This document shows positions 21,584 through 45,147 of a stretch of 64,000 nt of DNA, in pieces. Each line of letters begins with the position of its first letter. The first letter of the stretch is position 1. The DNA is from an uncultured Verrucomicrobiae bacterium. Its GTDB lineage: Bacteria > Chlamydiota > Chlamydiia > Chlamydiales > Rhabdochlamydiaceae. Position numbers and translations under genes: made by a program. The stretch is taken from positions 288,001-352,000 of the forward strand of contig CAWFUG010000011.1 in the NCBI GenBank assembly GCA_963818965.1, read 5' to 3'. The notes under the pieces are model-generated. The model was given only the letters and a program-made list of their open reading frames with translations, was not told the origin of the DNA and did no database searches.

Positions 21584-21589
21584 ATAGAA

Positions 21590-27984: not shown

Positions 27985-28158
27985 AACCCCTCCAAAAAAA
28001 TAAATAAGATCACCCTTATAATACAAATTATAACAACGTTTAATTTAAATTAAATAAAAATGACTTATTCTTAGAATAAAATGAATAAACATAACAAAAT
28101 TAGAGCAAAAACAATAAACCTGTTGAAATTAAACGTCTTCTGAATAGGCAAAAATCAA

Positions 28159-29925
28159 CTAGGTATCTGTCGAGCGCTGTGCATCCAGGAGAGTCTGGTA
28201 GATCTCTTCCGTGGAATCGAGGCTGAGGACCCTTTCGGCGAGCGAATAGGCCCTGAGGAGGGTGGTTTTACGAACGGTTCGCTTGACCAAGGGAATATAA
28301 CGAGGGGAACAGGAGAACTGGTGGATCCCTAATCCGAGCAGGAGAGGGATAAATAGGGGGTTAGAAGCCATCTCGCCACAGAGAGTGAGGCTTTTTTGGT
28401 ACCGATTTGCGTCGGAGCAGATCAGGTGGATCATCCGGGCGATGCTGGGGTGGGATAGGTACCAAGAATCACTCATTCCAGGATCGCTCCGATCGACCCC
28501 TAGGGTATACTGGACTAGATCATTGGTGCCGATCGAGAGAAAATCGCTGCCACGCGCGATCGCATCGCAGAGAAGAACAGCGGAGGGCACTTCGATCATG
28601 CTCCCCAGCGGCACGTTCTGCGCAGCGGGGATCCCCTTTTCAAGAAGAAATCGACCTTCCTCCGCAATGAGCGCTTTCGCCTCATCCAGCTCTTTCATAT
28701 CGCCCACGAGGGGGAGTAGAATCCGGACATCGCGGTTGAGCGCAGCGCGTAAAATCGCACGCACTTGAGTCCTGAAGATCTCAGGATGGCGCAGCAAAAA
28801 GCGGATCCCACGACACCCCAGCATCGAATTGGACTCTTTCTTCCCTTGAGAACTCTGCGAAAAAGGCTCCAGGACTTTATCACCTCCGATATCGAAGACG
28901 CGGATCACGACGGGAACGTCTCCCGCCTTCTCGATCATTTGAGAATAGGCGTAATACTGTTCCTGTTCAGAAGCGAATAGGTGCTGTCTTTCGAAAAAGA
29001 GGTATTCTGTGCGGAATAATCCGATCCCCTCGGCTCCGAGCGTCTGAAAATTTTCTAGATCTTGGAAGTCTCCGACATTGGCAAAGATCTTGACCTGCCA
29101 GCCATCGATTGTCTCTGCATCGTATTTGAGCTCTTTCTGTAAGATATGTTGGGAGGTCTTAAGAGAGGTTCTGCGGTGTGTGTAAATCTTTAGCGTCTCA
29201 GGACTAGGATTGAAAATCACCTCTCCCGTTTGTCCATCGACGATGATCGATTGAGCTCCGATCATCTGTGCTTCAGAGATATCGATGCAGGAGACATAGG
29301 GGATTCCCTTGGCCCTAGCGATGAGCGCAGCGTGGGAATTCCCGCCTCCCGATTGCGTCACAAAAGCAGACACCCGGGCAGTATTAGCCACAGCTGTGTA
29401 GGAAGGGATGAGTTCTTTGACAAAAACGATCGAATTGAAAGGCACGAGAGGAAATTGGGGCTTTTTCTGAGGATAGAGATGCCCAAGAACTCTCTTTGCC
29501 AAGTCCATCACATCGACCGATTTCTCCTGAAAGGCGGGATCTGTGTTTTTAGAAAATCGGCTCTCGTAGTCGGAAATGACATGATGGAAGACAGACTCTG
29601 TATTGTGCAGCATCTGTCGGATCTTTTCTTCCATATGGGTCGTGATCAAGGGATCTTCGAGCATCTGGATATGAGTATCGATGATCGTCGCAGCATCTTT
29701 AGATCCTTCATCGAGCAGATTCGAATGGATCTGTCTCAAATCCTCTCTGCTAAAACAAAGAGCCGTTCGATACCGATCAATTTCATTATCGACCTCTTTT
29801 AAGGTAATAGGAAATGAGGGAATTTCTTCTTCGAAACAAGGGAGAAAATAAGGCATCCCAATTGCGATCCCTTCGCTGACCGGAATCCCCTGAAATCTCC
29901 TTTCCTCATACTCTGTCATTGACAT
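28159..29925 (-). CDS. ptsI: PTS enzyme I
   Basis: GGGNSHAALIARA, GIGLFRTE, FDIGGDK, MIEVPS, SIGTNDL, CGEMA. Confidence 0.95.
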   Translation of the reverse strand: MSMTEYEERRFQGIPVSEGIAIGMPYFLPCFEEEIPSFPITLKEVDNEIDRYRTALCFSREDLRQIHSNLLDEGSKDAATIIDTHIQMLEDPLITTHMEEKIRQMLHNTESVFHHVISDYESRFSKNTDPAFQEKSVDVMDLAKRVLGHLYPQKKPQFPLVPFNSIVFVKELIPSYTAVANTARVSAFVTQSGGGNSHAALIARAKGIPYVSCIDISEAQMIGAQSIIVDGQTGEVIFNPSPETLKIYTHRRTSLKTSQHILQKELKYDAETIDGWQVKIFANVGDFQDLENFQTLGAEGIGLFRTEYLFFERQHLFASEQEQYYAYSQMIEKAGDVPVVIRVFDIGGDKVLEPFSQSSQGKKESNSMLGCRGIRFLLRHPEIFRTQVRAILRAALNRDVRILLPLVGDMKELDEAKALIAEEGRFLLEKGIPAAQNVPLGSMIEVPSAVLLCDAIARGSDFLSIGTNDLVQYTLGVDRSDPGMSDSWYLSHPSIARMIHLICSDANRYQKSLTLCGEMASNPLFIPLLLGLGIHQFSCSPRYIPLVKRTVRKTTLLRAYSLAERVLSLDSTEEIYQTLLDAQRSTDT

Positions 29926-30188
29926 TCCCCAAATTCATTTTCAAATGCAAAAAGGATCTTATCCATGATCTCTTGAGCATCCTCCCCTTCGACCGCAACA
30001 GTGATCAGAGAGTTTTTTGTCGCAGCGAGCATCAAAATGTTCATGATGCTACGGGCATTGACCGTCTCTTTGCGAAGCGTAAAAAAAACGGACGAACGGC
30101 TTTCTTGCAATAATTTTGCAATGACAGTTGCTGGCCGAGCGTGAAGCCCAAGCGCATTTTTAACGCGTACTTTGCGCATGAGCTTCAC
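29916..30188 (-). CDS. ptsH: Phosphocarrier protein HPr
   Basis: GLHARPA (His15), NARSIM (Ser46). Confidence 0.93.
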   Translation of the reverse strand: MKLMRKVRVKNALGLHARPATVIAKLLQESRSSVFFTLRKETVNARSIMNILMLAATKNSLITVAVEGEDAQEIMDKILFAFENEFGECQ

Positions 30189-31134
30189 GGATTCTCTTCC
30201 CCTTTTCTTGCTTTTTGGAAATCGTCTCTAAGAGTTTGACGTTGAATTCTTTTGCAGAATTATATCCCATCTCCTTCAATCGGTGATTGAGAACGATGGT
30301 TTCGATGAGAAGGATGACATCCCTTCCCGGCTTTAAAGGCAGGATGTGGTAAGGGATCTTGACCCCCAACAAATCGCAAAAACGCTCATCGAGCCCCACT
30401 CGATCGTAAAAGCAATGGTCATCCCATTCTTCGAGTTTGACGATGAGATCGATTTTTTTATCATCGCGCACACACACCGCACCATAGAGGTGCGCCACAT
30501 TGATGATCCCAATGCCTCGGATCTCCATGAGATGGCGTGTGAGCTCAGGTCCCGACCCTTCGAGACTCGTCCCCTCTCTCAAACGCACGCGAACGACATC
30601 GTCAGAGATCAGCCGATGCCCCCGTTCGATCAAACCCAACGCCGCCTCGCTCTTTCCCACGGAGGAATCCCCCTGAATCAAGACACCGACCCCAAAGGCC
30701 TCTACCAACGTTCCATGACAGGTCATCGTCGGTGAAAATTCCTCCGCCAAAAAAAGGGTCATTCTATTCAAGAGACTAGTCGTCGGCACATCTGTATTGA
30801 AAAGAGAGATCCCCTGTTCTTCGCAAACGACGATGAGCTCCTTCACAGGACGGTAGCGCCCCGCAACGATGACAGCAGGCGTCTGCTTAGAGAGAAGATC
30901 GCGAAGTCGCTTTAAGCGCGTTTCTTTGTTCAGATCCCTCAAGTACGCACTCTCGACGTTGCCGAAGATCAAAAGGCGCTGACTGTCGTAATTCTTCAAA
31001 TACCCTGACAAACTCAAACCCGGGCGATGCGCTTCTGGCACCTTAATCGTCCGTTTCAATCCATCCTTTCCCGCGATCAATTCTAATCCCAAGGGCTCTT
31101 TGACTCGATCGAAAAAGTTTTGAACGACGTACAT
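30160..31134 (-). CDS. hprK: HPr kinase/phosphorylase
   Basis: RPGL.L.G, GDSSVGKSE, GHRLISDD, MEIRGIGIIN. Confidence 0.95.
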   Translation of the reverse strand: MYVVQNFFDRVKEPLGLELIAGKDGLKRTIKVPEAHRPGLSLSGYLKNYDSQRLLIFGNVESAYLRDLNKETRLKRLRDLLSKQTPAVIVAGRYRPVKELIVVCEEQGISLFNTDVPTTSLLNRMTLFLAEEFSPTMTCHGTLVEAFGVGVLIQGDSSVGKSEAALGLIERGHRLISDDVVRVRLREGTSLEGSGPELTRHLMEIRGIGIINVAHLYGAVCVRDDKKIDLIVKLEEWDDHCFYDRVGLDERFCDLLGVKIPYHILPLKPGRDVILLIETIVLNHRLKEMGYNSAKEFNVKLLETISKKQEKGKRIREAHAQSTR

Positions 31135-31231
31135 AACACCCTGGTTTTAGCTGTTTGCCACACAAGAGAGGGGGAGATTATAGACCCTTCAAGAATTAAT
31201 TGTAAGCACAGAATGCGTTTTCGCGGAGCAC

Positions 31232-31372
31232 ACCCAAACGCAGATAAAAACCACAGAGAGGCGAAACCACAGAGAGGAATTTTTCAAATAGCTTTTCTGA
31301 TCAAGAAGTTCTCTTAGGTATAAATTTTCTCTCTGTGGTTTCCCCTCTCTGTGGTTTTATCTGCCTTTAGGT
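31232..31372. repeat. Family A palindromic element variant
   Basis: GCAGATAAAAACCACAGAGAGGCGAAACCACAGAGAG ... CTCTCTGTGGTTTCCCCTCTCTGTGGTTTTATCTGC. Confidence 0.85.
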
Positions 31373-31484
31373 AACAATGTTATGGCGCGCCATCCCGTAT
31401 TGGTGACGGTAGCCGTAACGGTAAAAAAACGCCATTGCATTTTATTTCTGTTTGGCAAAAATCTAAATCATACCCTGGACGGAC

Positions 31485-32741
31485 ATGACACACACAAAAG
31501 TGGTAATTATCGGCGGCGGCTTTGGCGGACTCAATGTCGCAAAATCGCTGCATAAAACAGATCTCGACATCTTGATGATCGACAAGACCAACCACCACCT
31601 CTTTCAACCTTTGCTCTATGAAGTAGCGACAGCTGCCATCTCTCCCGGAGATATAGCTACCCCGTTGAGAGAAATTTTGCGTGAGCAGCAGAATACGACT
31701 GTCATCATGGGAGAAGTCGTCCAGATCGATACGGAGAAAAGACAAGTCATTCTCGTTAACGAGATGAGCATCCCCTACGACTATCTCGTGATCGCCATCG
31801 GAGCGCGCCACTCTTATTTCGGACACGACGAATGGGAAACCTTCGCGCCCGGACTTAAAAACATCCGCGATGCCCTCAACATCCGCGAACAAATTTTACT
31901 CTCTTTCGAAAAAGCAGAACGACTCAATAACAGCGTCGAAGCGGAAAAATACCTAAACTTCGCCATCATCGGAGGAGGCCCCACCGGAGTCGAAATGGCC
32001 GGTGCAATCGCTGAGATCGCCCACAAGACGCTCTTTGAAAATTTCCGCCGCATCAAACCGGAGACATCAAAGATCTACCTCATCGAAGCACTCCCCAATA
32101 TCCTCCCCATGTACCCTTCCAAGCTCGCCGATCGCGCGAAGAGAGATCTGGAAAAGATGGGCGTCAAAGTGCTTACAGGAACAAAAGTGACGAACATCAC
32201 AGGTGAAGGAGTCCAAATCGAGGGCGAATTCATCCCCTGCCAAAACATCATCTGGGCGGCGGGCAACCAAGTCTCCCGCCTACTGCAATCACTCAACGTC
32301 CCACTCGATCGAGCGGGTAGAGCCATCGTCGAGCCTGACCTCACGATCCCCGGCCACCCGGAGGTCTTCGTGATCGGCGATGCGGCGAGCTGCACATCTA
32401 AAGAGGGCAAACCCCTGCCGGGAGTCGCCCCTGTCGCCATCCAAGAAGGGCACTACGTCGCTCACATCCTTAAAAACAACACCCCCAAAGAAAAGAGAAA
32501 GCCGTTTGTCTACTTCGACAAAGGCAGCCTAGCTACGATCGGCAAAGCAAAAGCGATCGCTTGTGTAGGAAAACTGCAAATCGCCGGCTTTTTAGCCTGG
32601 CTCATGTGGGCCTTCGTCCACATCGTCTATCTCATCGGCTTCCGCAACCGACTCACCGTCTTGATCGAATGGGCTGTCGCCCTGTTCAGTGGACGGCGTG
32701 GGGTCCGGATCATCAACAAATCGATCGACACGCCTAAATAA
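31485..32741 (+). CDS. ndh: Type II NADH dehydrogenase
   Basis: GGGFGG, FQPLLYEVAT, GGGPTGVEMAG, IWAAG, FVIGD. Confidence 0.93.
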   Translation: MTHTKVVIIGGGFGGLNVAKSLHKTDLDILMIDKTNHHLFQPLLYEVATAAISPGDIATPLREILREQQNTTVIMGEVVQIDTEKRQVILVNEMSIPYDYLVIAIGARHSYFGHDEWETFAPGLKNIRDALNIREQILLSFEKAERLNNSVEAEKYLNFAIIGGGPTGVEMAGAIAEIAHKTLFENFRRIKPETSKIYLIEALPNILPMYPSKLADRAKRDLEKMGVKVLTGTKVTNITGEGVQIEGEFIPCQNIIWAAGNQVSRLLQSLNVPLDRAGRAIVEPDLTIPGHPEVFVIGDAASCTSKEGKPLPGVAPVAIQEGHYVAHILKNNTPKEKRKPFVYFDKGSLATIGKAKAIACVGKLQIAGFLAWLMWAFVHIVYLIGFRNRLTVLIEWAVALFSGRRGVRIINKSIDTPK

Positions 32742-32881
32742 GAGCAACTTACAACCTTATTTCAAATAAAGAAATAATGATTTTTTTGATTTTATTAATT
32801 AAAAATAAAATTACATCTTATAAATAAAAACTATTTTTGCTATTATACAATACATATTAACACAAATAAAACAGGTTTTAT

Positions 32882-34593
32882 ATGAGTACTCGTTCATTAT
32901 CTTCTAGTCAAAGCCCATGTCAGGGCTCCTCTTATTCCTCTAGCCCTAGATCTGCAGAACCGGGATCTGCAGAACCGGCAAACTCCCCCACTCTTCAACG
33001 ATTATCTCTCTTTCCAGGACCCTATGAGCCTTTTTCTAAAGAGCTCTCTCTTCTGATTGAGCGAGTAGATCATCTTTATACTCAAGGGCAAGCCCTCTCA
33101 GAAGAAGCGTCTGCAACACTGTGCAGAGATCAGATTCAAAATTGTGCCACGGTAGAAGAAGCTGTCAGTGTTCTCGAAAAAAACTGTACAGGCATCGACC
33201 AAACCATTCTCTACAACCTCATCAATCTAGCGCAAAAAAGCGGCACTAATGCTGAGTTAAACTACCTATTAGCATCAGGGAAAAATGCAAATCTCATCTC
33301 AACTCCCACAGAACAAATCGATCGACTCTATTGGCAAGGAAGACGCCTTCCCCCAGAACAATCCCACGGTGTTTGCGAAAAAATCTTAAAATATAATGAC
33401 CTAGGAAAGGCCTTGAGCTTTTTGGAACGAAAAAATATCGCGGTCGATTTCGATATCCAACAAACCCTTTCTGAGATCGCTTACAACAACGGGGCATTAG
33501 ATGAGTCGCACGCGATCATTGACTGGGGCTTTGAACGAAAAATTAACTGCACTGAATCTTATAAATGGCAAGAGGAGGGAATCCCAGAAAAGCATCTCTA
33601 TCTGCTCAATCGCCATCTCGCAGCGCAAGATCTCCTTTCCCTTCCACAGCGGATCGATGAACTCTTTATGCAAGGAGACCGCCCTTCAAAAAAATTATCC
33701 CTTAGAATCAGTGCGCACATCCGAACCTGTGAGAGCTTAGAAGAGGCGATCTCTTTTTTGGAAATAAGCGATATCAAGATAGATAAGCGGATCTTCGATC
33801 ATCTCATGAAATGCGCTGAAAAGACGGACACATGGGAGCTAGTAGATTGCCTGTTTAAAAATGGAAAAAAAAATCGACTATTGAACTCTAACCATTACAC
33901 GGTATTCATTCGCCTTGCCTACAAAGCCGGTCAATTTAAGAGCGCACAAGAGGGGCTGGATTTGTTACAGAAAGATAGGGTTCCTCTAAACCCTTATAGC
34001 CTCATGACCCTCATGCAATTCGCTGGGAAAACTGGCAATTTTGAAGATTTGAGGCAGCTATTTGAACTGGGAAAGAAAAAGCGAATCGTAAACGACCATC
34101 ACTTTGCCACCTTGATTCATTTCATGCCGCTATCTCAAGAGCAACTCGATCTTCAGGACTTTAGTGAAAACACGAATCCTGTCATCAGCCGAATCGTCGT
34201 TAATAATTTAGTGGAAAGCAATAGACTAGCTGAAGGGCTCCAAGTCCTAAGAAAACGCGCTGCGCAGTCCCTCGCCGCCACCAAGAAGCATCCTCTCTTG
34301 AAACCCCAGTCTTTGATCTACACCACATGAACTATGGAACAGCTCTTTTGGCGACACTGGATCTGAGCAAAACTCATTTTTCTTTTACCGTGATTACAGG
34401 GGTAGGAAAACATGCACGAAATCCTTATTTACACCTGAGAACTAAGCTCCTCCAAGGAATCGAGCAGCATGCGCCCCATCTTGAGACCCAAGTCACCCTC
34501 AAAAATCCAGGACGCTTAAAGATTTCGACAAAAAGAAAGATGGCTCCAGAGACTGGTGGGGCTCAGAAGCGAGAGAAAAGAGCGCGTCATTAG
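32882..34593 (+). pseudogene. PPR-like repeat protein with C-terminal Smr domain, split by a 1-nt frameshift near 34252-34255
   Basis: ORFs 32882-34330 and 34327-34593 together align with the intact paralog at 34745-36622; the Smr motifs FDLHHM..VITGVGKH..NPG are in the shifted frame. Confidence 0.8.
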
Positions 34594-34744
34594 AGTCTGA
34601 AAATCGACATTCCTAAACAAGAGCGTCTTATGATCTCGTTCAGGGGTGTCGAATATTTTTTTTAAAAAAAATCGATATTGCAAAATAAGTAAAACCACGT
34701 TAATATATTTGTTATAAATAAACAAATTAACCAAGGTATTTTTT

Positions 34745-36622
34745 ATTACTAATCCAATATCTTCAAATCAAAGTTATTACTCTTCATTCAGTTCTAGATC
34801 GGAAGAGGCAGAGCACACTAACGTTCCAGCAGGATCAGAGAACTCTCCCAGTGGAGAAGATTCTCTTTTAGAATCCCCTAGATTCCCCGTGCTTTATCAT
34901 CCTTTTCCTAGAAAATATTCTCTTCTCTCTGAGCGACTAGACGATCTTTGCGCCATGGGTAGATTGCTCTCAGAAACAGCCTCTGTTGAACTGAGCAAAA
35001 CCCTGAGTGAAAAGTGGCGTACGGTAGAGGAAGCGGTCTCCTTTCTCGAAAGAGCGGAGATCTGTATGGATAAACTCATCCTCCAGAGCCTTATCGAGGT
35101 GGCAAAAAAAAGTAATGACGTCGCTAATGCAAAGCAGCTCTTTGCACTGGGAAAAAACTCAATGCTCCTGCCCACAAATCCTGTAGAGCAACTGGAAGGA
35201 CTTTATTCGCAAGGAAGAGAAGTCTCAGAAGAAGAATCCAGCGCTCTTTGCGAGAGAATCCTACGATGCACTGGACTACCAATGGGCTTGTGCATTTTAA
35301 AGCAAGACAATGTCGCGCCCGATTTTGCTATCCAACAAAGCATTTCTGAGCTCGCCTTCAAAGTCGGACAAATCGAATTAGCCCACGCAATTGTCGGTTG
35401 GGGCCACGAAAAAGGAATCATCGGTAGGCAATTCCAGAAATGGAACTACGAAGGGTTCTCAGAAGAACAGCTCGAAATGCTAGAGCACCATCGCAGCGGA
35501 CGCGATCGCCTTCGTGAGCGGATCGATTCACTCTTTCTAGAAGGAGAGAGCCCCTCCCAAAAATTCTCTATTGCCACCCGTTCGCACATCTCAACCTACA
35601 AAAGCCTAGAAGCCGCAGTCTGCTTTTTAGAAACAAGTGATATTAAGCTAGATATGTATATCCTCAACTCTCTCATGGACGGCGCAGGAAAGACTGAAGG
35701 ATTTGAGCTAGTAGATCACCTTTTTAAGCGGGGAAAAGAACATGGGCTACTGAGCCCCAACAATTACGGGGTATTTCTTCGCTACGCCTGCGAGTCTGGT
35801 CATTTCAGGAGCTTAGAAGAGGCACTGGATTTCTTGGAAAAAGAAGGGGTTGATATAAACTCTTTTGACCTGAGAACTCTCATGGATTTCGCTAAGAAGA
35901 CAGGCGATTTTGGAAATTTCATGGATCTATTTGAACTGGGAAAACAAAAGGGAATACTAAGCTCCCACAATTACACGACATTCCTTGGCTATGCCTGCGA
36001 GTCTGGTCATTTCCAGAACGTGGAAGAGGCCTTGAATTTCTTGAAAAATGAGGAGGTTGATCTATGCTCTTTTGACCTGACAATCCTCATGAAATTCGCT
36101 GGGAAGACAGGCGATTTTAAAGCTTTAACGCATCTATTTGAACTGGGAAAGCAAAAAGGAATCTTAAACAAGTATCATTCTACCAGCTTGCTTCGTTTTG
36201 CTCCGACACTTCAAAACGAACTGGATGTTCAAGCTCTCACTCAAAATATGGATACAGATTCTATCTTCTTCCAAGTCCTCATTAATAACTTAGTGGAACA
36301 AAATAGGATGGAGGAAGCGCGCCAACTTCTAGAACAAACGGACTGCGCATCCACTCGCTTTGCCAGAGAGGACCACTACTTTAGGGGACCGACCTTCGAT
36401 CTACACGAAATGAACTATGGAACCGCTCTTTTGGTGACGCTAGATCTCAGTAAAACATACTCTTCTTTTATCGTGGTTACAGGGATAGGAAACCATTCAA
36501 ACAACCCTTATTTACAGCTGAGAACCAAGCTCATCGCTGGAATCAAACAGCATGCACCCCATCTTAAGATCGAGCTCAACCCAAGAAATCAAGGGGTCGT
36601 AAGGATTTTGAGAACAGAATAG
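34745..36622 (+). CDS. PPR-like repeat protein with C-terminal Smr domain (start uncertain: ATT 34745 or GTG 34889)
   Basis: Alternating 35/34-aa helical repeats that fit the PPR consensus; 207-bp internal duplication (35761/35968); FDLHEM...VVTGIGNHS...NQG Smr motifs. Confidence 0.8.
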   Translation: MTNPISSNQSYYSSFSSRSEEAEHTNVPAGSENSPSGEDSLLESPRFPVLYHPFPRKYSLLSERLDDLCAMGRLLSETASVELSKTLSEKWRTVEEAVSFLERAEICMDKLILQSLIEVAKKSNDVANAKQLFALGKNSMLLPTNPVEQLEGLYSQGREVSEEESSALCERILRCTGLPMGLCILKQDNVAPDFAIQQSISELAFKVGQIELAHAIVGWGHEKGIIGRQFQKWNYEGFSEEQLEMLEHHRSGRDRLRERIDSLFLEGESPSQKFSIATRSHISTYKSLEAAVCFLETSDIKLDMYILNSLMDGAGKTEGFELVDHLFKRGKEHGLLSPNNYGVFLRYACESGHFRSLEEALDFLEKEGVDINSFDLRTLMDFAKKTGDFGNFMDLFELGKQKGILSSHNYTTFLGYACESGHFQNVEEALNFLKNEEVDLCSFDLTILMKFAGKTGDFKALTHLFELGKQKGILNKYHSTSLLRFAPTLQNELDVQALTQNMDTDSIFFQVLINNLVEQNRMEEARQLLEQTDCASTRFAREDHYFRGPTFDLHEMNYGTALLVTLDLSKTYSSFIVVTGIGNHSNNPYLQLRTKLIAGIKQHAPHLKIELNPRNQGVVRILRTE

Positions 36623-36644
36623 AGAACCCAACAGGTTAAAAGCC

Positions 36645-36733
36645 GGCTGTGGTATAACTCGACTTTGTACATTTGTTGACCTATAGCTGCAAGCGATTAT
36701 AAGTCAACAACTTGCAAAAAGCGCAAAGTCGAG
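36645..36733. repeat. Nested palindromic elements
   Basis: GGCTGTGGTATA (identical to the right end of the plsX element) abutting CTCGACTTTG...CAAAGTCGAG, with an inner TTGTTGAC/GTCAACAA stem. Confidence 0.75.
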
Positions 36734-36861
36734 ATTAAGAGAAAAAACGCGTCATTTTCAGCGGTGGGCACGGTGTGCGGCTCATCGACACTCCTAAGAA
36801 TCTATCTTAGTAAAACCTCCCACCTCTTTTCAGTAATAAATTAAAAAAATTATTACACTAA

Positions 36862-36890
36862 TTGACAGAATAGAAATATTTTAGTATAAT
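36862..36890 (+). promoter_or_regulatory. Perfect sigma70/sigma66 consensus promoter
   Basis: TTGACA-17 nt-TATAAT upstream of ORF 36935. Confidence 0.8.
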
Positions 36891-36934
36891 AATTTACATT
36901 AAACTTTAACATTAATTAAAACTAAGGAATTCTT

Positions 36935-39900
36935 ATGAGCGTTAATCGAAAATCTTATCCTAACCGTTCCAAATCAGAACATCCTCATCCGGCCCAAGCC
37001 TCACGAACAAGAGCCCCCCATGGCAGGGAAGAAAACACCGCCCTAGCACAGCGGATCGACAAGCTCTTTACCCTTTCTAAAAAAAATGACACCGCCGAAT
37101 ATACGATCGATGAAATTTGCGTAAAACTCAATAGATACGATGACTTAAAGGCTGCCATCTGCTTCTTGGAAAAAATGGGGGTACCGATGGATGCCACTAT
37201 TCTCGAAAACCTCATGGAATGCGCTGCCAGGAACAATGATTTGGGCGCATTGAAGAGACTATTTAAAATGGGCAAGGACATCCTGAATGATAAACACCGC
37301 AACATTTTCCTTTTTCATGGGCAGCGTTTGGGTTGTGATGAAGTCGTGAGAGAAAACCTGGACTTTTTAAAAAATAAGGAGATCCCGCTAGGAGATACGT
37401 ATCTGTCCAGTTTGATGAACTCGGCTACCCGACTAAAAGACTTTCCCATTATGAAAAGACTGTACAAGATAGGGGAAAAAAGAGGTGCCTTAAACGAAAT
37501 CCACAAGTATCTTTACCTTTCTTTTGGAAGACGCTTCAATTACCCAGAAGTCTTAAACAAGGGGGTGAGCTGTGTAGCGAGCAAGCCATCACTGCACATT
37601 GATTTGTTAACTCAATTGCTGACTTTTGTTGGTGAATCCAATGTTAACAAAACCAAAAAATTTGAAATGCTACAAGAGCTCATTCAAATCGGAAAAGACA
37701 AAAAATCAGTAACAGCTCTTCATCAAAAAATTTTTCTCGATTCAGCAATTAAACTGAATCATCCTGAGGTTATAACCGAGGGCGTGAGTTTCTTAGCCTA
37801 CCAGAAGATAAACACCAGTCCATGGTATCTGTCTGAGCTGATGCATCTCACGGTCGAGTACAAACGGTTTGACTTATTGGTAGAGCTGTTCAAAATAGGA
37901 TTTAAAAAAGGAGTTTCAGATTCTAATCACTTAAATCTATTTCGTACACTCGCAATGAAATTCGGTACTGAGGAAGCAGAAAAAGCGGAACAGATCATAA
38001 AGGAAGAGAAAACACCTGCTTCTTGCAAACAACCGAGCTTCGTATTAAAAAAAGAACAGATCAATAAAGACGATCCCTTAATCCAACGGATCGATAAGCT
38101 CCTCCCTGCACCTGATTCAAAACGCTCACGGAACGTTTCCTATAGAATCGATGAGGTGCGTCGCCATCTCTATGAGTGCAAGACCCTAGCAGATGCGCTC
38201 TCTTTCTTAGAAAAGCACCACTTACCGATAGATCATATTACCCTCAATGCCCTCTTAAAATGCTGTACAAAAAGTGGCTCATTTGAGTACGCAGCTTATC
38301 TATTTGATCGAGGAAACGAGCTTAAGCTAGTAGAGATCATTCCCCATTCCATTTCATTCCTTGAGTGTGCTTACGCATCAGGTCATTACGCATGCGGAAA
38401 AGAGGAATTAGATCGTTTAATACAAAACGGGGAAATATTAACCCCTGCTGCACTCCATATTTTGATGAAATCTGCTGATAAAAACGGCGATTTTGAAGAG
38501 CTCCATGAGCTGTATAAAAGAGGACATATCATGAAAATTATCACTCCCTCTCATCGTCTGTTTTTTCTTTTGTCTGGATGTCGATTAGAGCGTCTGGAGG
38601 TCCTAAATGAAGGAATGTCTTTCTTAGAAAATGCGAGCACCCCGGTCACTCCAGACGATCTAACGCAGCTGATCCCTTTTTTTGGCAATACCGGCAATGT
38701 TAATCTATTAAAAATTCTTAGAAGTGGAGGGCGTAACAGAGGCATCCTCACTACAGAGCACGGAAAAAAGATTAGGCAATACATTCAACAAATCAAAGGA
38801 GATGGCGCGCCAGGGCTCCCACAGACTGTGGGATCGACAATAACACGTCGAGGAGCACCGCGTAAACAGCCCCAACCTACCCGACCCATTTTTGAAACCC
38901 GAACCCAGACGCAACCTAAACTCACCCATTGGAGCTCTGATGAGGAAGAGGGGGAAGTACGCGAGGAGAGAGGGCCTACTAGACCCATTTTTGAAACCCG
39001 AACCCAGACGCAACCTGAACCTACCCATTGGAGCTCTGACGAGGAAGAGGGGAAAGTGCGCGAGGAGAGAAGGCCTACTAGACCCATTTTTGAAACCCGA
39101 ACCCAGACGCAAGCTGACCCTACCCATTGGACCTCTGATGAGGAAGAGGGGGAAGTGCGCGAGGAGAGAGGGCCTACTAGACCCATTTTTGAAACCCAAA
39201 CCACTACTCAACTCGATCCCCTCCCTGTGTTTCCCAATGAAGAATCGGAGGAACTGAGCAGACAGATGGAAGCTGCAGCTGAGTTCCCCTGGTTTACAGC
39301 AATCAAAAAACTGTATGAAACAGGAAAAGGAAAAGGCATTCTAACCGATCAACACAAATCTCTGTTTCTTTTCTATGGGAAAAAGCACGGACATCACGAA
39401 GTCTTGAATGAAGGAGTGGGTTTTCTAGTAAACGAAAAACTGCTAAGTGCTAAAGAACTCAATGAACTATGCCAATTTGCTTTCAAAGCCGGTAACTTTG
39501 AAGCATTGCAAGAACTGATGGAAGTGGCAAAAGGTAGGGGCCAAGCGACCGACTTTTTCCGCAATCAATTTCTCACTCTGGCACTTGACCTCGGTCATCC
39601 CGAAGCGATCAACGAAGGGGTGAGTTTCTTGGCCAATAAAAGTATCCCTCTGCCTGCCTACCGTTTGCGCGGTCTCATGCACATAGCACGCACTTGCGAA
39701 AATTTTGAAATCTTGAAAGAGCTATTTGAAATAGGAATCGAAAGAAAGATCATCAATCCATTTGAGCACGACAATCTCCTGCTATTCTTCGGCTTTGCAG
39801 ACGAATTGGGTCATGCAGAAGAAGCTGAACAGATCATCGAAAAGGCAACGGGACAGATCGTAAGGAAGAAAACTTTAAGCAGCAATGCACTCTCCTCTAA

Positions 39901-40000
39901 TACGCAAACGACGACGACCACGACGACGACTCAAGCTAAAAGAGCTCGCGACAATGAAACCATAGCGAGCGATCCACAAGGGAAAAAAGCGCGCCGTTAA
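36935..40000 (+). CDS. Large PPR-like helical repeat protein with acidic tandem repeats and a basic tail (no Smr)
   Basis: Same repeat unit as the upstream paralogs (L..LM......GDF..L.ELF..G...GIL...H..FL); C-terminal poly-Thr, KRAR and GKKARR. Confidence 0.75.
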   Translation: MSVNRKSYPNRSKSEHPHPAQASRTRAPHGREENTALAQRIDKLFTLSKKNDTAEYTIDEICVKLNRYDDLKAAICFLEKMGVPMDATILENLMECAARNNDLGALKRLFKMGKDILNDKHRNIFLFHGQRLGCDEVVRENLDFLKNKEIPLGDTYLSSLMNSATRLKDFPIMKRLYKIGEKRGALNEIHKYLYLSFGRRFNYPEVLNKGVSCVASKPSLHIDLLTQLLTFVGESNVNKTKKFEMLQELIQIGKDKKSVTALHQKIFLDSAIKLNHPEVITEGVSFLAYQKINTSPWYLSELMHLTVEYKRFDLLVELFKIGFKKGVSDSNHLNLFRTLAMKFGTEEAEKAEQIIKEEKTPASCKQPSFVLKKEQINKDDPLIQRIDKLLPAPDSKRSRNVSYRIDEVRRHLYECKTLADALSFLEKHHLPIDHITLNALLKCCTKSGSFEYAAYLFDRGNELKLVEIIPHSISFLECAYASGHYACGKEELDRLIQNGEILTPAALHILMKSADKNGDFEELHELYKRGHIMKIITPSHRLFFLLSGCRLERLEVLNEGMSFLENASTPVTPDDLTQLIPFFGNTGNVNLLKILRSGGRNRGILTTEHGKKIRQYIQQIKGDGAPGLPQTVGSTITRRGAPRKQPQPTRPIFETRTQTQPKLTHWSSDEEEGEVREERGPTRPIFETRTQTQPEPTHWSSDEEEGKVREERRPTRPIFETRTQTQADPTHWTSDEEEGEVREERGPTRPIFETQTTTQLDPLPVFPNEESEELSRQMEAAAEFPWFTAIKKLYETGKGKGILTDQHKSLFLFYGKKHGHHEVLNEGVGFLVNEKLLSAKELNELCQFAFKAGNFEALQELMEVAKGRGQATDFFRNQFLTLALDLGHPEAINEGVSFLANKSIPLPAYRLRGLMHIARTCENFEILKELFEIGIERKIINPFEHDNLLLFFGFADELGHAEEAEQIIEKATGQIVRKKTLSSNALSSNTQTTTTTTTTQAKRARDNETIASDPQGKKARR
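38876..39202 (+). repeat. 99-bp coding tandem repeat, about 3.3 copies
   Basis: Units start at 38876, 38975, 39074 and 39173; they encode PTRPIFETRTQTQ...HWSSDEEEGEVREERG. Confidence 0.95.
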
Positions 40001-40019
40001 GACTCTTTGTGCTATAAGT

Positions 40020-40050
40020 GCCTGCCTTGTGCTTTACTAGGCAGGCTTTT
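40020..40050 (+). terminator. Probable intrinsic terminator
   Basis: GCCTGCCT-11 nt-AGGCAGGC followed by TTTT, just after the ORF 36935 stop. Confidence 0.5.
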
Positions 40051-40055
40051 CTTAC

Positions 40056-41588
40056 ATGCACCGAGCACTTACAGAGATCTTAAGATACCGCTCCTTCTTC
40101 TCCTCCTTCTGGGAGCGCCATCCTGCCCTTTTTTTGGGGTTCTCTAGTTTGTTGGGAACGGCTATAGCGATCCGCTCTCTCCCTCTCTCCTATCCCCTCA
40201 GCAGTATCTTCCTCTTTCTTCTCCTCTCTATCGAGAAGAAAAAACTCTTCATTTTAGCGGCCCTTTTCTTCCTTCTCGCCCTGGTGACCACACCCCTCCG
40301 CCACCCTGTCATTTCTCTTCCGCCGTCGAAAATCGAGGGGACGGGCCATTTTCACATCGAGACTATTAAACCCATGGCTTCCGCCTTTCACCGCTCACTT
40401 CTGTACAAGGGTAGGTTACTCTCCTTTCACACAAAGGAAGGCCTTCTTCTCCAAAACCTCCCCACTCATATCTACCTGCCCCTCAACGCCCCCCTTCCCA
40501 AGAACCCTTGCGACTATGCGATCGAAGGGACATTGCAGCAAAAGGGGGACCATTTTTTCGTTCTAAAGCCTCTTAAAAACACCGCCTGGAAGGAAATCGA
40601 AAATACCCACACCCTCTCCCTATGGCGCTACCAACTCAAACAGAAACTAAAAAATCTGATCAAAAAAGAGATCAAAGATAAATCAGCCCAAACACTCCTC
40701 TCCGCGCTGGCGACAGGAGATGTCGATGAGCGTCTGATCTCTTTAGAATTTGGCAAAATCGGACTCCAACACATCTTAGCCATCTCTGGCTTTCACTTTG
40801 CCCTCGTCGCCCTCTTTTTAAGGGGCATTTTCCGCTCCCTTTTCCCCTTCTCTTGGGGCTATAGCCTCTTGCTCTTATCTCTTACGGCTTACTATCTCTT
40901 TTTAGGGAATGCCCCCTCGATTCAAAGAGCCTATCTCGCAATCGCTTTCCTCATTCTCGGGAAGTTTTTCTCTTTGCGCCTTTCCGCACTCAATGCACTC
41001 GGCGCCGCGCTTCTCGTAGAAATAGCACTCAATCCCCTTTGCGTCACAGAACTCAGTTTTCAACTCACCTTTCTCTCTACCTTAGGGATCCTTCTCTTTT
41101 ATGCTCCTTTAAACGCCTTGTGTAAAAAGGGCTGGATCGAGCATTCCCCTTCCCAAATCGCGCAATTCTCTCTCTTTGAAAAACAGGGCTATCTCCTCTC
41201 TTGCTTCCTGCGCCAATCGCTTGCGATCAATTTAGCCGTAAGTCTCGTTTCTCTACCCGTGCTTTTGCACCTCTTCCACCGTTTTCCCCTTCTCAGCATC
41301 GCCTACAATCTCTTTTTTCCCCTCTGCATCTCTCTCTCTTTTTTGCTTTTATGTCTCGCCCTGAGCTTAATGCCCTTTTTCCCTCCGTTAAGCCACTGGA
41401 TCCATGCGCTCAACGACACCTGGACGACACACCTGCTCCACATCACTTCCAATCCCCCCGCCGCTCTCGATTTCATCCTCCGCACCGACCAGATCAGCTT
41501 CTCTTCTGCGGTAGTGATCTTAACGCTGATGCTCCTCCTGGCGATTCTCTTCCACGCGAGAACGCAGGCCTCTAAGAACCTATCCTAA
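40056..41588 (+). CDS. comEC: ComEC/Rec2 competence family membrane protein (no MBL domain)
   Basis: GLQHILAISGFH, PSIQRA, SFQLTFLS; multiple TM segments. Confidence 0.88.
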   Translation: MHRALTEILRYRSFFSSFWERHPALFLGFSSLLGTAIAIRSLPLSYPLSSIFLFLLLSIEKKKLFILAALFFLLALVTTPLRHPVISLPPSKIEGTGHFHIETIKPMASAFHRSLLYKGRLLSFHTKEGLLLQNLPTHIYLPLNAPLPKNPCDYAIEGTLQQKGDHFFVLKPLKNTAWKEIENTHTLSLWRYQLKQKLKNLIKKEIKDKSAQTLLSALATGDVDERLISLEFGKIGLQHILAISGFHFALVALFLRGIFRSLFPFSWGYSLLLLSLTAYYLFLGNAPSIQRAYLAIAFLILGKFFSLRLSALNALGAALLVEIALNPLCVTELSFQLTFLSTLGILLFYAPLNALCKKGWIEHSPSQIAQFSLFEKQGYLLSCFLRQSLAINLAVSLVSLPVLLHLFHRFPLLSIAYNLFFPLCISLSFLLLCLALSLMPFFPPLSHWIHALNDTWTTHLLHITSNPPAALDFILRTDQISFSSAVVILTLMLLLAILFHARTQASKNLS

Positions 41589-41658
41589 TATACCGAACGT
41601 GACTCAAGAATCGGGATTGGGCCGATTTGAGTATCAGAAATTTTATTAGGATAGGTTC
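41576..41658. repeat. GAACCTATCC-family element with 15-bp perfect TIR
   Basis: GAACCTATCCTAATA (41576-41590) / TATTAGGATAGGTTC (41644-41658); overlaps the comEC stop. Confidence 0.8.
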
Positions 41659-41720
41659 AAAGCCCTATCCCACTCTTAGTAACTTATAATTAGAGTGTTA
41701 CAATTTTTCTGGTCGGCGTT

Positions 41721-41749
41721 TTGACTATTATTGGATCTCATCCTATAAT
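41721..41749 (+). promoter_or_regulatory. Sigma70-type promoter, probably giving a leaderless mRNA
   Basis: TTGACT-17 nt-TATAAT-7 nt-ATG (41757). Confidence 0.65.
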
Positions 41750-41756
41750 AGCCAAT

Positions 41757-42959
41757 ATGTGGATACAACGCGATTTATTCCAGTTTTTGCAAAAGCATAC
41801 CGGGACTACGCTCCCTGTAAAAGTCCTAAGAGGCCCTAGGCAAGTAGGCAAGACCTCTTTGCTCAATCATTTGGGTACCCATAAGTTAGTTTTATTCGAC
41901 GATTTGAGTATCAGAAATTTTGCCCAAGAAAATCCTGCACTTTTTTTCGAAGAATTCACAGGCCCCCTTATTTTGGATGAGGCCACTCTCGCACCTCAAA
42001 TTTTCCCTGAGTTAAAAAGACGCATCGATATAGAACGGATGCGTCGTCAAAAAGAGGCTGTTCCCCTTTCATCCGATATCTGGATTACCGGCTCTAATCA
42101 GACGCTTTTGCAAAAAGAGGTACGTGAATCGCTAGCAGGTAGAGCTAATTATTTTCTCCTCAACACTCTGTCTATTCACGAATGGGAAAATAGCTTTTCC
42201 CAGCCCGTTTCTCTGCGCACAATGTTTATGCGAGGAGGTTGGCCCGAACTCCATGCCTCTCCAGAACTAAATCCGGTGCAATACCTCAACGATTTCATTG
42301 CGACTTTCATCGAAAAAGATATCGTCGCCGCAGCGGGCATTGAAAAAAGGGCGGCATTCAGTAAGACGTTGCAACTAGCAGCTGCTCGAGTTGCGCAACT
42401 TTTAAACTATTCAGACATAGCAAAAAATGTCGGAGTCGATACGACGACTGTCCAGGCATGGATTGCCTTATTGGAACAAAATGGTATCATACGTATTGTT
42501 CAACCTTACTATACCAATCTCAATCAAAGATTAATCAAAACTCCCAAAATTTATCTGGAAGATACGGGGCTCGCTGTCCGATTACAAGGATGGAGCGAAT
42601 TTGAGCCTGTGCTATTGAGCCCCTATTTTGGTAACTTGTTGGAAAATTTGGTCCTCGCTGAAATAACGCGCTTTTTCATCAACCGAGGTGTTCTGCCACA
42701 AGTTTATTTTGTGCGCTCCAAAGAACAAGTAGAAATAGACTTTTTGATCGAACTCCCCAATCAGCAATTCATTGCCATCGAAGTCAAAACAACTCCTGTG
42801 CCTATGAGCACTGCGCAGTTGTCTTTACTCGATTCTCTTAAGTTAAATATCGTAGAGAAATGGATCGTTTCCTCTACGGGATCTACAAACTTCGCTCATA
42901 CACGTCTTGTTCTCTACAACCAAATTTTCCAGAACCTCGAGAGAGTACACACTTCCTAA
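41757..42959 (+). CDS. AAA_14/DUF4143 ATPase with C-terminal PD-(D/E)xK-like motif
   Basis: GPRQVGKT, LILDE, ITGS, ESLAGR, GGWPE, KTPKIYLEDTG, EIDF...IEVK. Confidence 0.88.
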   Translation: MWIQRDLFQFLQKHTGTTLPVKVLRGPRQVGKTSLLNHLGTHKLVLFDDLSIRNFAQENPALFFEEFTGPLILDEATLAPQIFPELKRRIDIERMRRQKEAVPLSSDIWITGSNQTLLQKEVRESLAGRANYFLLNTLSIHEWENSFSQPVSLRTMFMRGGWPELHASPELNPVQYLNDFIATFIEKDIVAAAGIEKRAAFSKTLQLAAARVAQLLNYSDIAKNVGVDTTTVQAWIALLEQNGIIRIVQPYYTNLNQRLIKTPKIYLEDTGLAVRLQGWSEFEPVLLSPYFGNLLENLVLAEITRFFINRGVLPQVYFVRSKEQVEIDFLIELPNQQFIAIEVKTTPVPMSTAQLSLLDSLKLNIVEKWIVSSTGSTNFAHTRLVLYNQIFQNLERVHTS

Positions 42960-43035
42960 GAAAAGGAAATCTTGAAAAAAATAGCATCGAACCTGATGAT
43001 GGGGACTCGTCCACATATTTTAAAAGGGAACGATT

Positions 43036-44103
43036 ATGAAAAAGCGATATTTAGGACAGTGCGTATTCTGCTTCACGGCATTCTCTTTTTGTGCACATGC
43101 GGACGATCTGCCCGCATCGAGACAAGGACAAGAATCGAGCGGATTCGTCAACCCCTCGAGTCGCTTTGAAGTCGATCGAGGCTGGAACCTCTTTCTGAAT
43201 ACAGAATTTCTCTGGTGGGTCGCTAAAGAAGATGGACTCTACTACGCACAGAGCCGCTATAGCAATGAAGCAACTACTGCCATCCCTTCCGATGGGACGT
43301 TCGATTTCAAAGGCCACCTCCAAAGGGTCAAGCCCCTCTGGCAGCCCGCGTTCCGCTTAGGCTTTGGCGGAAATATGAGTTACGATGAGTGGGACCTCTT
43401 TTTGAACTGGACCTGGTTTTCCTCAGAAGCGAGAAATACGAGCAAAGGATCGCTCCTCGTGCTGTGGGGACACCCCGATATCGATGAAGTGGGATCTACT
43501 GCGAGAGCTGCCTATTATGCCAAAGGCAACTGGAACCTCCTCTACAATGTCCTCGATCTAGAGATGGGAAGATCATTCTGGGTCGGCAAACACTTCTCCC
43601 TACGCCCTTTTGTCGGCGTTCGCGGCGCTTGGATCGATCAACACTTTAAAGTGCGCTACCACTACGCGACAGCTCCGATGACGCATGGCCGTTTGAAGAT
43701 GAAATCTGACTTCGAAGGCGGTGGTGTCCGCGCCGGCGTCGATACCCGTTTTGCTCTTCTGAATGGATGGAGTTTTTACGGCATCGCTTCCGTTGCAGCG
43801 CTCTATGGTTTTTTCGACTGCGACTTTAGAGAAAACTGGCAAGGGACGCAGATCGCAAAGACCCGCGATGGATTCCACCAAGCGACGTCTGCCCTACAAA
43901 TGGCCTTCGGCGTCCGTTGGGATACTTATGTGCATCGAGACCGCTACCACTTCGGCATCTATGCAGGATGGGAACAGAATATTTGGTACGCTGTGAATAA
44001 GATGAACCACTACTTTAATTCCCTCGACCAAGGAAACCTCCAACAGCTCAATGCCGATCTCTGTCTCCAAGGAGGCACATTTGGCGTTCGTTTCGATTTT
44101 TAA
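43036..44103 (+). CDS. MOMP-like/Lpg1974-family outer membrane porin
   Basis: Signal peptide, FLWW, DLEMG.SF...SLRPF.G.R...IDQ, GWEQ, terminal Phe. Confidence 0.8.
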   Translation: MKKRYLGQCVFCFTAFSFCAHADDLPASRQGQESSGFVNPSSRFEVDRGWNLFLNTEFLWWVAKEDGLYYAQSRYSNEATTAIPSDGTFDFKGHLQRVKPLWQPAFRLGFGGNMSYDEWDLFLNWTWFSSEARNTSKGSLLVLWGHPDIDEVGSTARAAYYAKGNWNLLYNVLDLEMGRSFWVGKHFSLRPFVGVRGAWIDQHFKVRYHYATAPMTHGRLKMKSDFEGGGVRAGVDTRFALLNGWSFYGIASVAALYGFFDCDFRENWQGTQIAKTRDGFHQATSALQMAFGVRWDTYVHRDRYHFGIYAGWEQNIWYAVNKMNHYFNSLDQGNLQQLNADLCLQGGTFGVRFDF

Positions 44104-44112: not shown

Positions 44113-45147
44113 ATGAGATTTATCGCTACTACAGCCTGCACACTGCTCTCCAGCACTTTGCTTTTCTCCCATAGCTCTTTTGAGCCAGACGACCGGGTGA
44201 ACTATTCGAGCAACTATCAAGTGGAAGCGGGGGTCGATCTCTTTGTCTCCGGAGACTACCTCTATTGGACCGCTCGAGAGGATGGACTCAATTACGCCCA
44301 CACGGGAAAAGGCAGCGGAACGGCGACGATCCCTGCGATACAGAATGGAAATTTCGATGGACACCTCAAAAAGGTCACCCCCGGCTGGGAAAGCGCCTAT
44401 CGCGTCGGCCTAGGATTGAATTTCCCGCGCTCTGGATTTGACCTCGTCGGGATATGGACCCATTTCGATTCCCATGCCAAACACTCGGTTCATTCTGCAG
44501 AGGGAACCCTCTTTCCCGTCTGGGCGCACCCCGATGCCGCAGCCACAGCAAATGCGACAAGTGCCCAGGGTAAATGGAACCTAGAGCTCAGCACTATCGA
44601 TATCGAATGCGGGAAATCCTCCTGGTTTGGAGGCGACTTCTCTTTAAGACCCTTTTTTGGCATCCGTTGGCTCTGGATCGATCAGACTCTCCGTAATCAC
44701 TACACCTATGCGACGAGCCCTGCTGTAACGGGAAGACTCCGTTCCGCTTCCGATTTTGAAGGGGGCGGCATCCGCGCAGGCGCTGATCTGCGCTACGCGT
44801 TCGGTGCCGGTTTTTCTCTGGGCGCTGTCGCCTCGGGAGCGCTACTCTATGGAGAAACAGGGACGCATTTTCGCCTGAAAGAAGGGGAAACACTCATCGC
44901 GAGTGCAAAAGATCATCCCCTGGAAGGGATGACCACCCTCCAGACGAGCCTAACGCTCGGCTGGGATGGCCATTTCTGCAGCGATCGGTGCCATTTAGAG
45001 CTACATATCGGCTGGGAACAGAACATCTATTTCGATGCCAACCGCATGAACCACTACCTCTCATTCATCGGCCAAGGCAACTACTTCCAGGAGAAGGGAA
45101 ACCTCTACCTCCAAGGACTCATCGCCGGTGGCCGATTCGACTTTTAA
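44113..45147 (+). CDS. MOMP-like/Lpg1974-family outer membrane porin (paralog)
   Basis: Same motifs as 43036-44103; ends RFDF. Confidence 0.8.
   Translation: MRFIATTACTLLSSTLLFSHSSFEPDDRVNYSSNYQVEAGVDLFVSGDYLYWTAREDGLNYAHTGKGSGTATIPAIQNGNFDGHLKKVTPGWESAYRVGLGLNFPRSGFDLVGIWTHFDSHAKHSVHSAEGTLFPVWAHPDAAATANATSAQGKWNLELSTIDIECGKSSWFGGDFSLRPFFGIRWLWIDQTLRNHYTYATSPAVTGRLRSASDFEGGGIRAGADLRYAFGAGFSLGAVASGALLYGETGTHFRLKEGETLIASAKDHPLEGMTTLQTSLTLGWDGHFCSDRCHLELHIGWEQNIYFDANRMNHYLSFIGQGNYFQEKGNLYLQGLIAGGRFDF

Follow-up and report, generated by a model that had tools for sequence, protein, structure and literature searches.

What are the three tandem open reading frames (ORFs) that lie between ndh and comEC in a Rhabdochlamydiaceae genome, and what might their products do? 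We addressed this question in a window of 64,000 nucleotides (nt), positions 288001-352000 of contig C11 in a 2.24-Mb assembly of 12 contigs that is 87.9% complete. The plus strand of its segment 32882-40000 carries three big ORFs (32882-34330, 34889-36622 and 36935-40000), referred to here as genes 1 to 3. An earlier sequence-only reading of this segment had proposed a tandem set of pentatricopeptide-repeat (PPR) proteins, two of them ending in an Smr domain, that would enter host cells through a type III secretion system and cut RNAs chosen base by base. That reading is right on the identity of the proteins, plausible on their export and unsupported on programmable base reading. We propose that the locus is a lineage-specific insertion with three tandem, fast-diverging paralogs of a eukaryote-like PPR family.

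Identity of the repeats and of the C-terminal domain

The three plus-strand genes are tandem paralogs, as had been proposed. The products of genes 1 and 2 are 45% identical over 368 residues (E 4e-103), and gene 3 matches gene 2 in four stretches. We described the repeats with a 35-column profile that was seeded on five gene 2 repeats and iterated. It detected 49 repeats of 34 or 35 residues, of which 7 are in gene 1, 8 in gene 2, 18 in gene 3 and 16 in a fourth paralog encoded elsewhere in the genome. The repeats come in two flavours, with 35- and 34-residue units alternating, in agreement with the earlier description.

Comparison of the proteins with PDB sequences using phmmer returned PPR-type entries in every row: 23 of 23 for gene 2 (E<=10), 13 of 13 for gene 1 (best 7e-18) and 5 of 5 for gene 3 (best 4.4e-5). 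The best gene 2 matches (1.4e-19) are consensus or designer PPRs, with the natural protein PPR10 and the PPR-SMR protein pTAC2/PAP2 (7e-4) lower down. A single-sequence AlphaFold model of gene 2 has helix pairs throughout, at a mean predicted local distance difference test score (pLDDT) of 52.2 and values of 65-80 over residues 250-425. Of the best 50 Foldseek rows for this low-confidence model, the first 36 are PPR proteins; TPR proteins enter at rank 37, and ankyrin proteins are absent. In a protein-language-model atlas, the look-alikes (scores 0.86-0.93) are eukaryotic PPR or PPR-Smr clusters only, including a diatom 'Smr domain-containing' PPR cluster, and we take them as a lead only. From these sequence and model comparisons we conclude that the repeats are divergent PPR arrays and not TPR, HEAT or ankyrin repeats. 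An ankyrin or TPR reading had been tried and was rejected, with Pfam Ank_2 and Ank_4 below cut-off and the PDB and Foldseek rows being PPR.

We examined the C-terminal domain by alignment and by fold prediction. When the final 97 residues of gene 2 were used as a local phmmer query, about 25 of the proteins retrieved by the HMMER search described below proved to have a homologous C-terminal domain. In an alignment of 14 such domains, D24, H26, G31, G52, G54 and G89 are invariant and N87 is nearly so, giving the consensus LDLHG...(V/I)TGKGxH...NxG; Pfam Smr weakly matches 4 of these 14 family members (best 5.4e-4). An alignment-based fold of the gene 2 domain reached a pLDDT of 83.1, has the order beta-alpha-beta-alpha-beta-beta and, as a model, is superposable on solved Smr domains. 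Seven of its eight top Foldseek rows are Smr domains (MutS2, NEDD4BP2/B3BP, YdaL and human Smr; probability 0.99-1.00, E 2e-3 to 3e-2). Further structure-search matches are the Smr domains of B3BP (8.4) and the human protein (7.8), PAP2 (7.7), YdaL (7.5) and SmrB (6.7), with Alba-type folds interleaved among the Smr structures at 8.4-8.8. A profile search of the PDB was dominated by PPR chains and is uninformative on Smr.

The motifs are intact in both copies, FDLH with VTGIG in gene 2 and FDLH with ITGVG in gene 1. The combination of LDXH and TGXG marks the eukaryotic subfamily-2 Smr domains, and HGXG marks bacterial MutS2 and stand-alone Smr proteins (PMC3858433; papers are cited here and below for the excerpts available). 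For SmrB, for Cue2 and for one plant protein, cleavage of mRNA has been linked to the residues DxH and GxG (PMC10897456). On the strength of the DLH and TGxG motifs and of the structure matches, we assign the C-terminal domain to Smr, in its eukaryotic motif type and with the cleavage-linked residues kept. The AlphaFold and Foldseek comparison that the sequence-only reading had suggested as a check thus came out as PPR for the array and as Smr for the C-terminal domain.

Gene 2 encodes a PPR array and an Smr domain in one polypeptide. In gene 1 the two parts lie in different frames, and the earlier statement that genes 1 and 2 both end in Smr holds for gene 2 and needs amending for gene 1. No Smr domain is present in gene 3 or in the fourth paralog (P0004; 907 residues in a 920-codon open frame on contig C1, 283539-286262, minus strand). 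The latter is PPR-only, shares several blocks of 36-51% identity with gene 3 and, like gene 3, contains a module duplication. Its gene lies about 4 kb from one of three secretin genes (C1:290193-290699). The N-termini are polar and S/P-rich and have no hydrophobic signal peptide, and the basic tails reported for genes 1 and 3 are present in the translations. Judged by the classical bipartite consensus, the two basic clusters of the gene 3 tail resemble a bipartite nuclear localization signal (NLS). Elsewhere in the 87.9%-complete genome no Pfam Smr match rises above cut-off (best 14.9 bits), and a canonical SmrB/MutS2-type Smr protein was not found with the Pfam query.

Relatives in Chlamydiae and other bacteria

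In a HMMER search of 1.84 billion representatives, 145 proteins reached E<=1e-3, of which 23 had E<=1e-10 and 4 had E<=1e-30. The last four are gene 2 itself and its three paralogs (genes 1 and 3 and P0004), and many of the weaker matches cover gene 2 right to its C-terminus. A word-indexed protein search gave two proteins at E<=0.001 among 7,999 scored, gene 2 itself and gene 1, and gene 2 alone had weak matches in 2 of 40 relatives. With a PPR-plus-Smr profile at E<=1e-5, matches were found in 53 of the 400 scored genomes of the phylum, a further one being unscorable, and in 41 of 212 genera; in 25 phylum genomes besides the present one they reach the Smr part (positions ~262-350, as read from the table of matches).

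The search outside the phylum used a pattern taken from a 5-row alignment. It gave 20 confirmed loci, including metagenome-assembled genomes titled Chlamydiae, Anoxychlamydiales and Verrucomicrobia, three Legionella species and Piscirickettsia salmonis, and several of them match to the end of the query Smr domain. A pattern search of the genome contigs with gene 2 gave 35 matches, none of them confirmed. The 'Smr domain-containing protein' of Legionella cardiaca (P0104) aligns with the Smr domain of the cluster. In P. salmonis, a fish pathogen, relatives are found on the chromosome (L048) and on a plasmid (L051), and the plasmid match covers query residues 139-491, including the Smr end.

Several genomes carry such genes in series. 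In one (G284, C1:2736000-2760000), seven PPR ORFs, 352-970 codons long, are arranged in tandem within 24 kb, and five of them end in an Smr domain homologous to that of gene 2. These five PPR-Smr genes stand in a row. A genome of the same family as the source genome (G124) has two PPR-Smr genes side by side. By these matches, the PPR and PPR-Smr family is common and expanding in Chlamydiae, often as tandem arrays, and its spread over host-associated bacteria (Chlamydiae, Legionella and Piscirickettsia) fits what would be expected of effectors. In a further protein (P0008, 937 residues), a PPR array and a weak Smr match are followed by a CE-clan cysteine protease domain of the Ulp1/RickCE type (PF22179 5.9e-13, PF02902 5.6e-7); the G124 genes are the closest to its PPR part, at 45-50% identity. 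Its Ulp1/RickCE-type domain makes sense only against a eukaryotic host, and the predicted three-part architecture is of the effector type.

PPR proteins are usually regarded as RNA readers of eukaryotic organelles. They have been stated to be absent from bacteria (PMC4029402). PPR-SMR proteins of two Legionella longbeachae strains were reported in 2013 and ascribed to horizontal transfer (PMC3858433), and Llo1404 and Llo2643 of L. longbeachae are PPR proteins among eukaryote-like candidates (PMC2824747). The Ralstonia type III effector RipL has four predicted PPRs and a C-terminal NLS (PMC10654456), and rhizobial effectors have predicted PPR-like arrays fused to a polymerase-like unit (PMC13667924). 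As far as these excerpts go, bacterial PPR effectors and bacterial PPR-SMR proteins are already on record, without a tested mechanism. The earlier statement that no such system had been described is therefore too broad in view of the L. longbeachae proteins and RipL. It stands for chlamydial PPR-Smr genes, of which we found no description in the literature searched, the coverage of which leaves out most subscription journals.

The cluster differs from the plant and algal PPR-SMR proteins (GUN1, pTAC2/PAP2, SOT1 and SVR7) in being bacterial, without an evident organelle transit peptide, and in its alternating 35/34-residue repeats with mostly non-canonical specificity residues. Its genes are also in tandem and diverge fast, and their products have <30% identity to any solved PPR. 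The Legionella proteins (Llo1404, Llo2643 and the L. cardiaca Smr-domain protein) resemble those of the cluster in being eukaryote-like and bacterial; they belong to an intracellular bacterium of protists and are listed among putative secretion substrates (PMC2824747, PMC3858433). However, they come from another phylum, would use Dot/Icm rather than type III secretion and share about 23% identity in the Smr region, and no three-gene tandem cluster is reported there in the excerpts. RipL, which we liken by description only, matches the layout proposed for gene 3 as a type III effector with PPR motifs and a C-terminal NLS, but in this effector of a plant pathogen the 4 predicted PPRs are accompanied by a large unrelated region, and an Smr domain is lacking. 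Unlike the cluster proteins, the Smr nucleases SmrB of E. coli, Cue2 of yeast and NONU-1 of C. elegans owe their recruitment to N-terminal hooks, CUE or KOW domains and not to PPR arrays.

Insertion, reading frames and tempo of change

We compared the locus with that of five relatives, four genomes of the same family and one of the same genus. In all five, ndh and comEC are adjacent, with a gap of 20-200 nt, and the 7.3-kb cluster between them is therefore an insertion particular to the present lineage. The GC content is 0.41-0.46 inside the cluster and 0.48 in both flanks. Borders of a mobile element were looked for and rejected: there is no tRNA in 28000-44000, no integrase among the scanned ORFs and no direct repeat flanking the insert, those in 32600-40200 all being copies of paralogs or repeat units. 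Near-identical pieces of the cluster occur in contigs from peat and soil metagenomes. The sequencing runs listed comprise six DNA runs of such metagenomes, with small shares (0.05-0.13), and no RNA run.

The Smr region of gene 1, which is 77% identical to that of gene 2 in nucleotides, is separated from the PPR frame at a short A-rich spot (Table 1). P0002, a 472-residue gene 1 version from another assembly, does not differ before this break and then continues in the third frame. In a peat-metagenome run (X1), one 151-nt contig (depth 2.1) has a length difference at the break and four substitutions. The site thus has three different lengths, in the window, in the P0002 assembly and in the metagenome contig, and could be variable between strains, prone to slippage or error-prone in sequencing. 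A programmed frameshift was judged unlikely, as no classical slippery heptamer is seen by eye and two assemblies differ there.

The frame of gene 2 is open for 57 codons 5' of its GTG, and this part encodes a polar stretch homologous to the gene 1 N-terminus. In the aligned 5' regions, the ATG of genes 1 and 3 corresponds to a non-start codon in gene 2, which is followed by ATT 34745. Five of the seven differences upstream of the GTG in a strain-variant contig (run X2) are synonymous third-position changes in frame; on these seven sites, they suggest that the upstream stretch is translated, perhaps from the ATT. The polar N-termini that had been noted for all three proteins are thus present, that of gene 2 lying upstream of its first ATG, GTG or TTG.

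We then dated the duplications relative to one another by synonymous divergence (dS). The two copies of the 207-bp unit in gene 2 are 78% identical in nucleotides and 65% in amino acids, with a dS of 0.35 and a ratio of nonsynonymous to synonymous divergence (dN/dS) of 0.66. For gene 1 against gene 2, dS is 0.39 in the Smr parts (dN/dS 0.61) and 0.57 in the PPR parts (dN/dS 0.60). Because the dS of the duplication is close to the 0.39-0.57 of the gene pair, it is, by this measure, about as old as the gene 1/gene 2 duplication. The earlier reading was right that a two-repeat duplication exists (2.0 copies) and wrong to call it recent, at 78-80% nucleotide identity. Its broader proposal of diversification by duplication of genes and repeats is borne out by this duplication, by the modules of gene 3 and P0004 and by the tandem arrays in other genomes. 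The proteins change fast, yet long open frames remain. As judged from these frames at dS 0.35-0.57, and from the 5/7 synonymous bias upstream of the gene 2 GTG, the genes are still under coding constraint.

Do the arrays read RNA by the PPR code? We numbered positions 5 and 35 by mapping the repeats to consensus PPRs through the PDB alignment and took N, T or S at 5 with D, N, S or T at 35 as canonical. Canonical pairs are present in 6 of the 49 repeats of the four paralogs. Position 5 is N, T or S in 17/49 repeats here versus 69/84 in 36 other proteins, relatives in the same search, for which position 35 is unreliable since their 34-residue units throw the register off. Even the two closest repeat units share only 65% of their residues, the changes being scattered along the unit, and other repeats are far more diverged. 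The specificity residues suggest that the arrays probably rely on something other than the canonical one-base-per-repeat PPR code for recognition.

The proteins could be programmable effectors, an RNA counterpart of the transcription activator-like (TAL) effectors, in which the code residues of each repeat read one base of a host RNA, Smr cuts that RNA and the gain of repeats alters the target, as the sequence-only reading had it. The fusion of PPR with Smr, in which DxH and TGxG are kept, would suit such proteins, as would the repeat-unit duplication in gene 2 and the module duplication in gene 3 and the fourth paralog, and the position 5 residues of the relatives indicate that the wider family may still read RNA. 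However, in the cluster itself canonical pairs and canonical position 5 residues are the minority, and no target can be predicted from positions 5 and 35 as had been hoped. Furthermore, TAL-like repeats would be near-identical and differ mainly at specificity residues, a pattern that we did not find: the duplicated units differ at 35% of residues, spread over the unit and not at two sites. We therefore regard base-by-base programming as improbable.

Table 1. Features of the cluster and its flanks, in window coordinates
Feature	Position	Strand	Description	Evidence
ndh	31485..32741	+	left flank; NDH-2 type NADH dehydrogenase gene	Pfam Pyr_redox_2 2.4e-52, NDH2_C; synteny
Gene 1, PPR part	32882..34330	+	482 residues; S/P-rich polar N-terminus, then 7 detected 34/35-residue repeats	ORF list, paralog alignment, repeat profile, PDB phmmer
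Gene 1, Smr part	34237..34593	+	separate reading frame, open from ~34237; ATG ORF 34327-34593, 88 residues; DLH and TGVG, basic tail	
Gene 1, frame break	34240..34260	+	short A-rich spot	PPR frame ends 34330, Smr frame open only from ~34237
Gene 2 (PPR-Smr)	34745..36622	+	first canonical start GTG 34889 (577 residues); frame open upstream; ATT 34745 candidate non-canonical start	
Gene 2, tandem duplication	35748..36162	+	207 bp (69 residues, two repeats)	Tandem Repeats Finder (TRF), 2.0 copies, 80% match
Gene 2, Smr domain	36395..36622	+	FDLH..., VTGIGNH, N.G	alignment, fold model, structure searches
Promoter match	36862..36890	+	sigma-70-like, TTGACA-17-TATAAT, 12/12 positions, ~45 nt upstream of gene 3	
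Gene 3	36935..40000	+	1021 residues, intact; 18 detected PPR-like repeats in three blocks, without Smr domain	
Gene 3, tandem repeat	38876..39202	+	99 bp x 3.3, in frame; codes acidic 33-residue repeat linker	TRF, 92% match
Gene 3, C-terminal tail	39932..39997	+	two basic clusters (KRAR ... KKARR), bipartite-NLS-like	translation
comEC	40056..41588	+	right flank; comEC-type competence membrane protein gene	Pfam Competence 3.9e-36; synteny

The promoter match upstream of gene 3 is one of 10 sigma-70-like sites found in the region versus 9.4 expected, which is not above chance. The cluster is preceded by ptsI, hprK and then the NDH-2 gene, and comEC lies downstream. Further out in the window, the minus strand carries a two-partner secretion (TPS) pair (19874-26194), composed of an ShlB/FhaC-type transporter (568 residues) and a TpsA-type exoprotein with a TPS domain (1533 residues). 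It also carries, near the cluster, the gene of a eukaryote-like repeat protein (26263-28026), a 586-residue leucine-rich-repeat protein (LRR_8 1.8e-35). On the plus strand are two tandem genes of the Legionella major outer membrane protein family (43036-44103 and 44113-45147; PF05150, 1.9e-30 and 1.4e-34) and two tandem paralogs with a eukaryote-type protein kinase domain in their C-terminal halves (56065-57645 and 57841-59445; Pkinase 1.7e-23 and 5.1e-19). The genome as a whole has 4 TLC nucleotide-transporter matches, in keeping with a host-associated life; Chlam_PMP (PF02415) was not found in the 87.9%-complete genome, which says nothing on taxonomy.

Proposed role and its alternatives

The genome encodes one FHIPEP/SctV protein (734.8 bits) and three secretins, and no flagellin was found in the 87.9% of it that is represented. 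By this gene content it has a non-flagellar type III secretion system, as the sequence-only reading had presumed. We propose that the bacterium delivers these proteins into its host cell, most probably with this system and by way of their polar, signal-peptide-free N-termini. Genes 1 and 2 would be PPR-Smr fusions, in which a solenoid of 34/35-residue helical hairpins is followed by an Smr domain of eukaryotic subfamily 2 (DxH with TGxG), and gene 3 and the fourth paralog would be long PPR-only versions. In the host, the degenerate PPR array may act as a platform that binds RNA or a ribonucleoprotein, for example the ribosome, and the Smr domain, with its cleavage-linked residues, would cut or grip the bound RNA. 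For part of the family the nucleus may be the destination, given the basic tails of genes 1 and 3. On the sequence evidence a role as effectors is plausible, and we incline slightly towards the reading as a whole, in which eukaryote-derived proteins are exported to the host, where a degenerate PPR array binds RNA or ribonucleoprotein and Smr cuts or clamps.

Several observations weigh against this reading. The Pfam comparison that had been suggested as a check stayed below the thresholds: gene 2 reaches 26.6 bits with PPR_2 where the cut-off for the PPR families (PF01535/PF13041) is 30, genes 1 and 3 have nothing near it, and Pfam Smr (PF01713) has no match to genes 1 and 2 at E<=1, either as proteins or in a six-frame genome search. 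The whole-protein model of gene 2, from a single sequence, is poor at its pLDDT of 52.2. Gene 1 is frameshifted here and, differently, in another assembly, and gene 2 has no canonical start codon where its paralogs begin. With a dN/dS of about 0.6, relaxed constraint is as good an explanation as diversifying selection. The canonical RNA code is, by its specificity residues, largely gone in the cluster, and no target is readable. What the metagenome contigs show is subject to their shortness and low depth (2-3.5), and parts of the cluster that they do not cover are uninformative. Finally, secretion, localization, RNA binding and nuclease activity, and with them export, target and activity as a whole, are predictions.

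The same genes could also have a function inside the bacterium, in RNA processing or ribosome rescue, such that Smr senses collided bacterial ribosomes like SmrB or MutS2 and the PPR array is an accessory binder of RNA or ribosomes. Bacterial Smr proteins do act on collided ribosomes (PMC10897456), and, with no other Pfam Smr match above cut-off in the genome, the cluster could hold its only Smr proteins. However, the cluster is absent at the same site in 5/5 relatives, including one of the same genus, and gene 2 matches only weakly in 2/40 relatives, so a core function is unlikely. The Smr motif is the eukaryotic TGXG and not the HGXG that bacterial members of ribosome quality control carry, the paralogs are fast-evolving and tandem, and the wider family is seen in host-associated bacteria. 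Taken together, these points leave an internal function with a low probability.

Least probable is that the cluster is a decaying, functionless remnant of a gene taken from a eukaryotic host: the frameshift of gene 1 in two assemblies, the loss of the conserved ATG from gene 2, the dN/dS of ~0.6 and the weak Pfam scores would agree with decay, but frames of 577 and 1021 codons persist despite a paralog dS of 0.35-0.57, the strain differences upstream of the gene 2 GTG are biased to synonymous sites (5/7), the catalytic-type motifs are intact in both Smr copies, the break in gene 1 differs in length in the metagenome contig and may be strain- or assembly-specific, and the family is kept and expanded in many genomes.

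The interest of host-directed PPR and PPR-Smr proteins, the reading to which we incline, comes mainly from the family being common and expanding in Chlamydiae, with PPR or PPR-Smr genes carried by about one in eight of the sampled chlamydial genomes. If the proteins are not exported, the cluster would represent an unusual eukaryote-to-bacterium transfer that has been kept and expanded. If they are exported, they would form a host-directed RNA or ribosome nuclease family common to several intracellular bacterial lineages, and as natural PPR-nuclease fusions they would be of interest for RNA-tool engineering. A more far-reaching version, which we consider rather unlikely, is that Chlamydiae, and in parallel Legionella and Piscirickettsia, captured a eukaryotic PPR-Smr gene and expanded it into a large and rapidly diversifying family of injected endonucleases that attach to certain RNAs or ribosomes of the host (cytosolic, nuclear or organellar) and cleave them, the present cluster being a young, still-duplicating locus of this kind. 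Were this so, the family would provide intracellular bacteria with an undescribed way to reprogram host gene expression post-transcriptionally.

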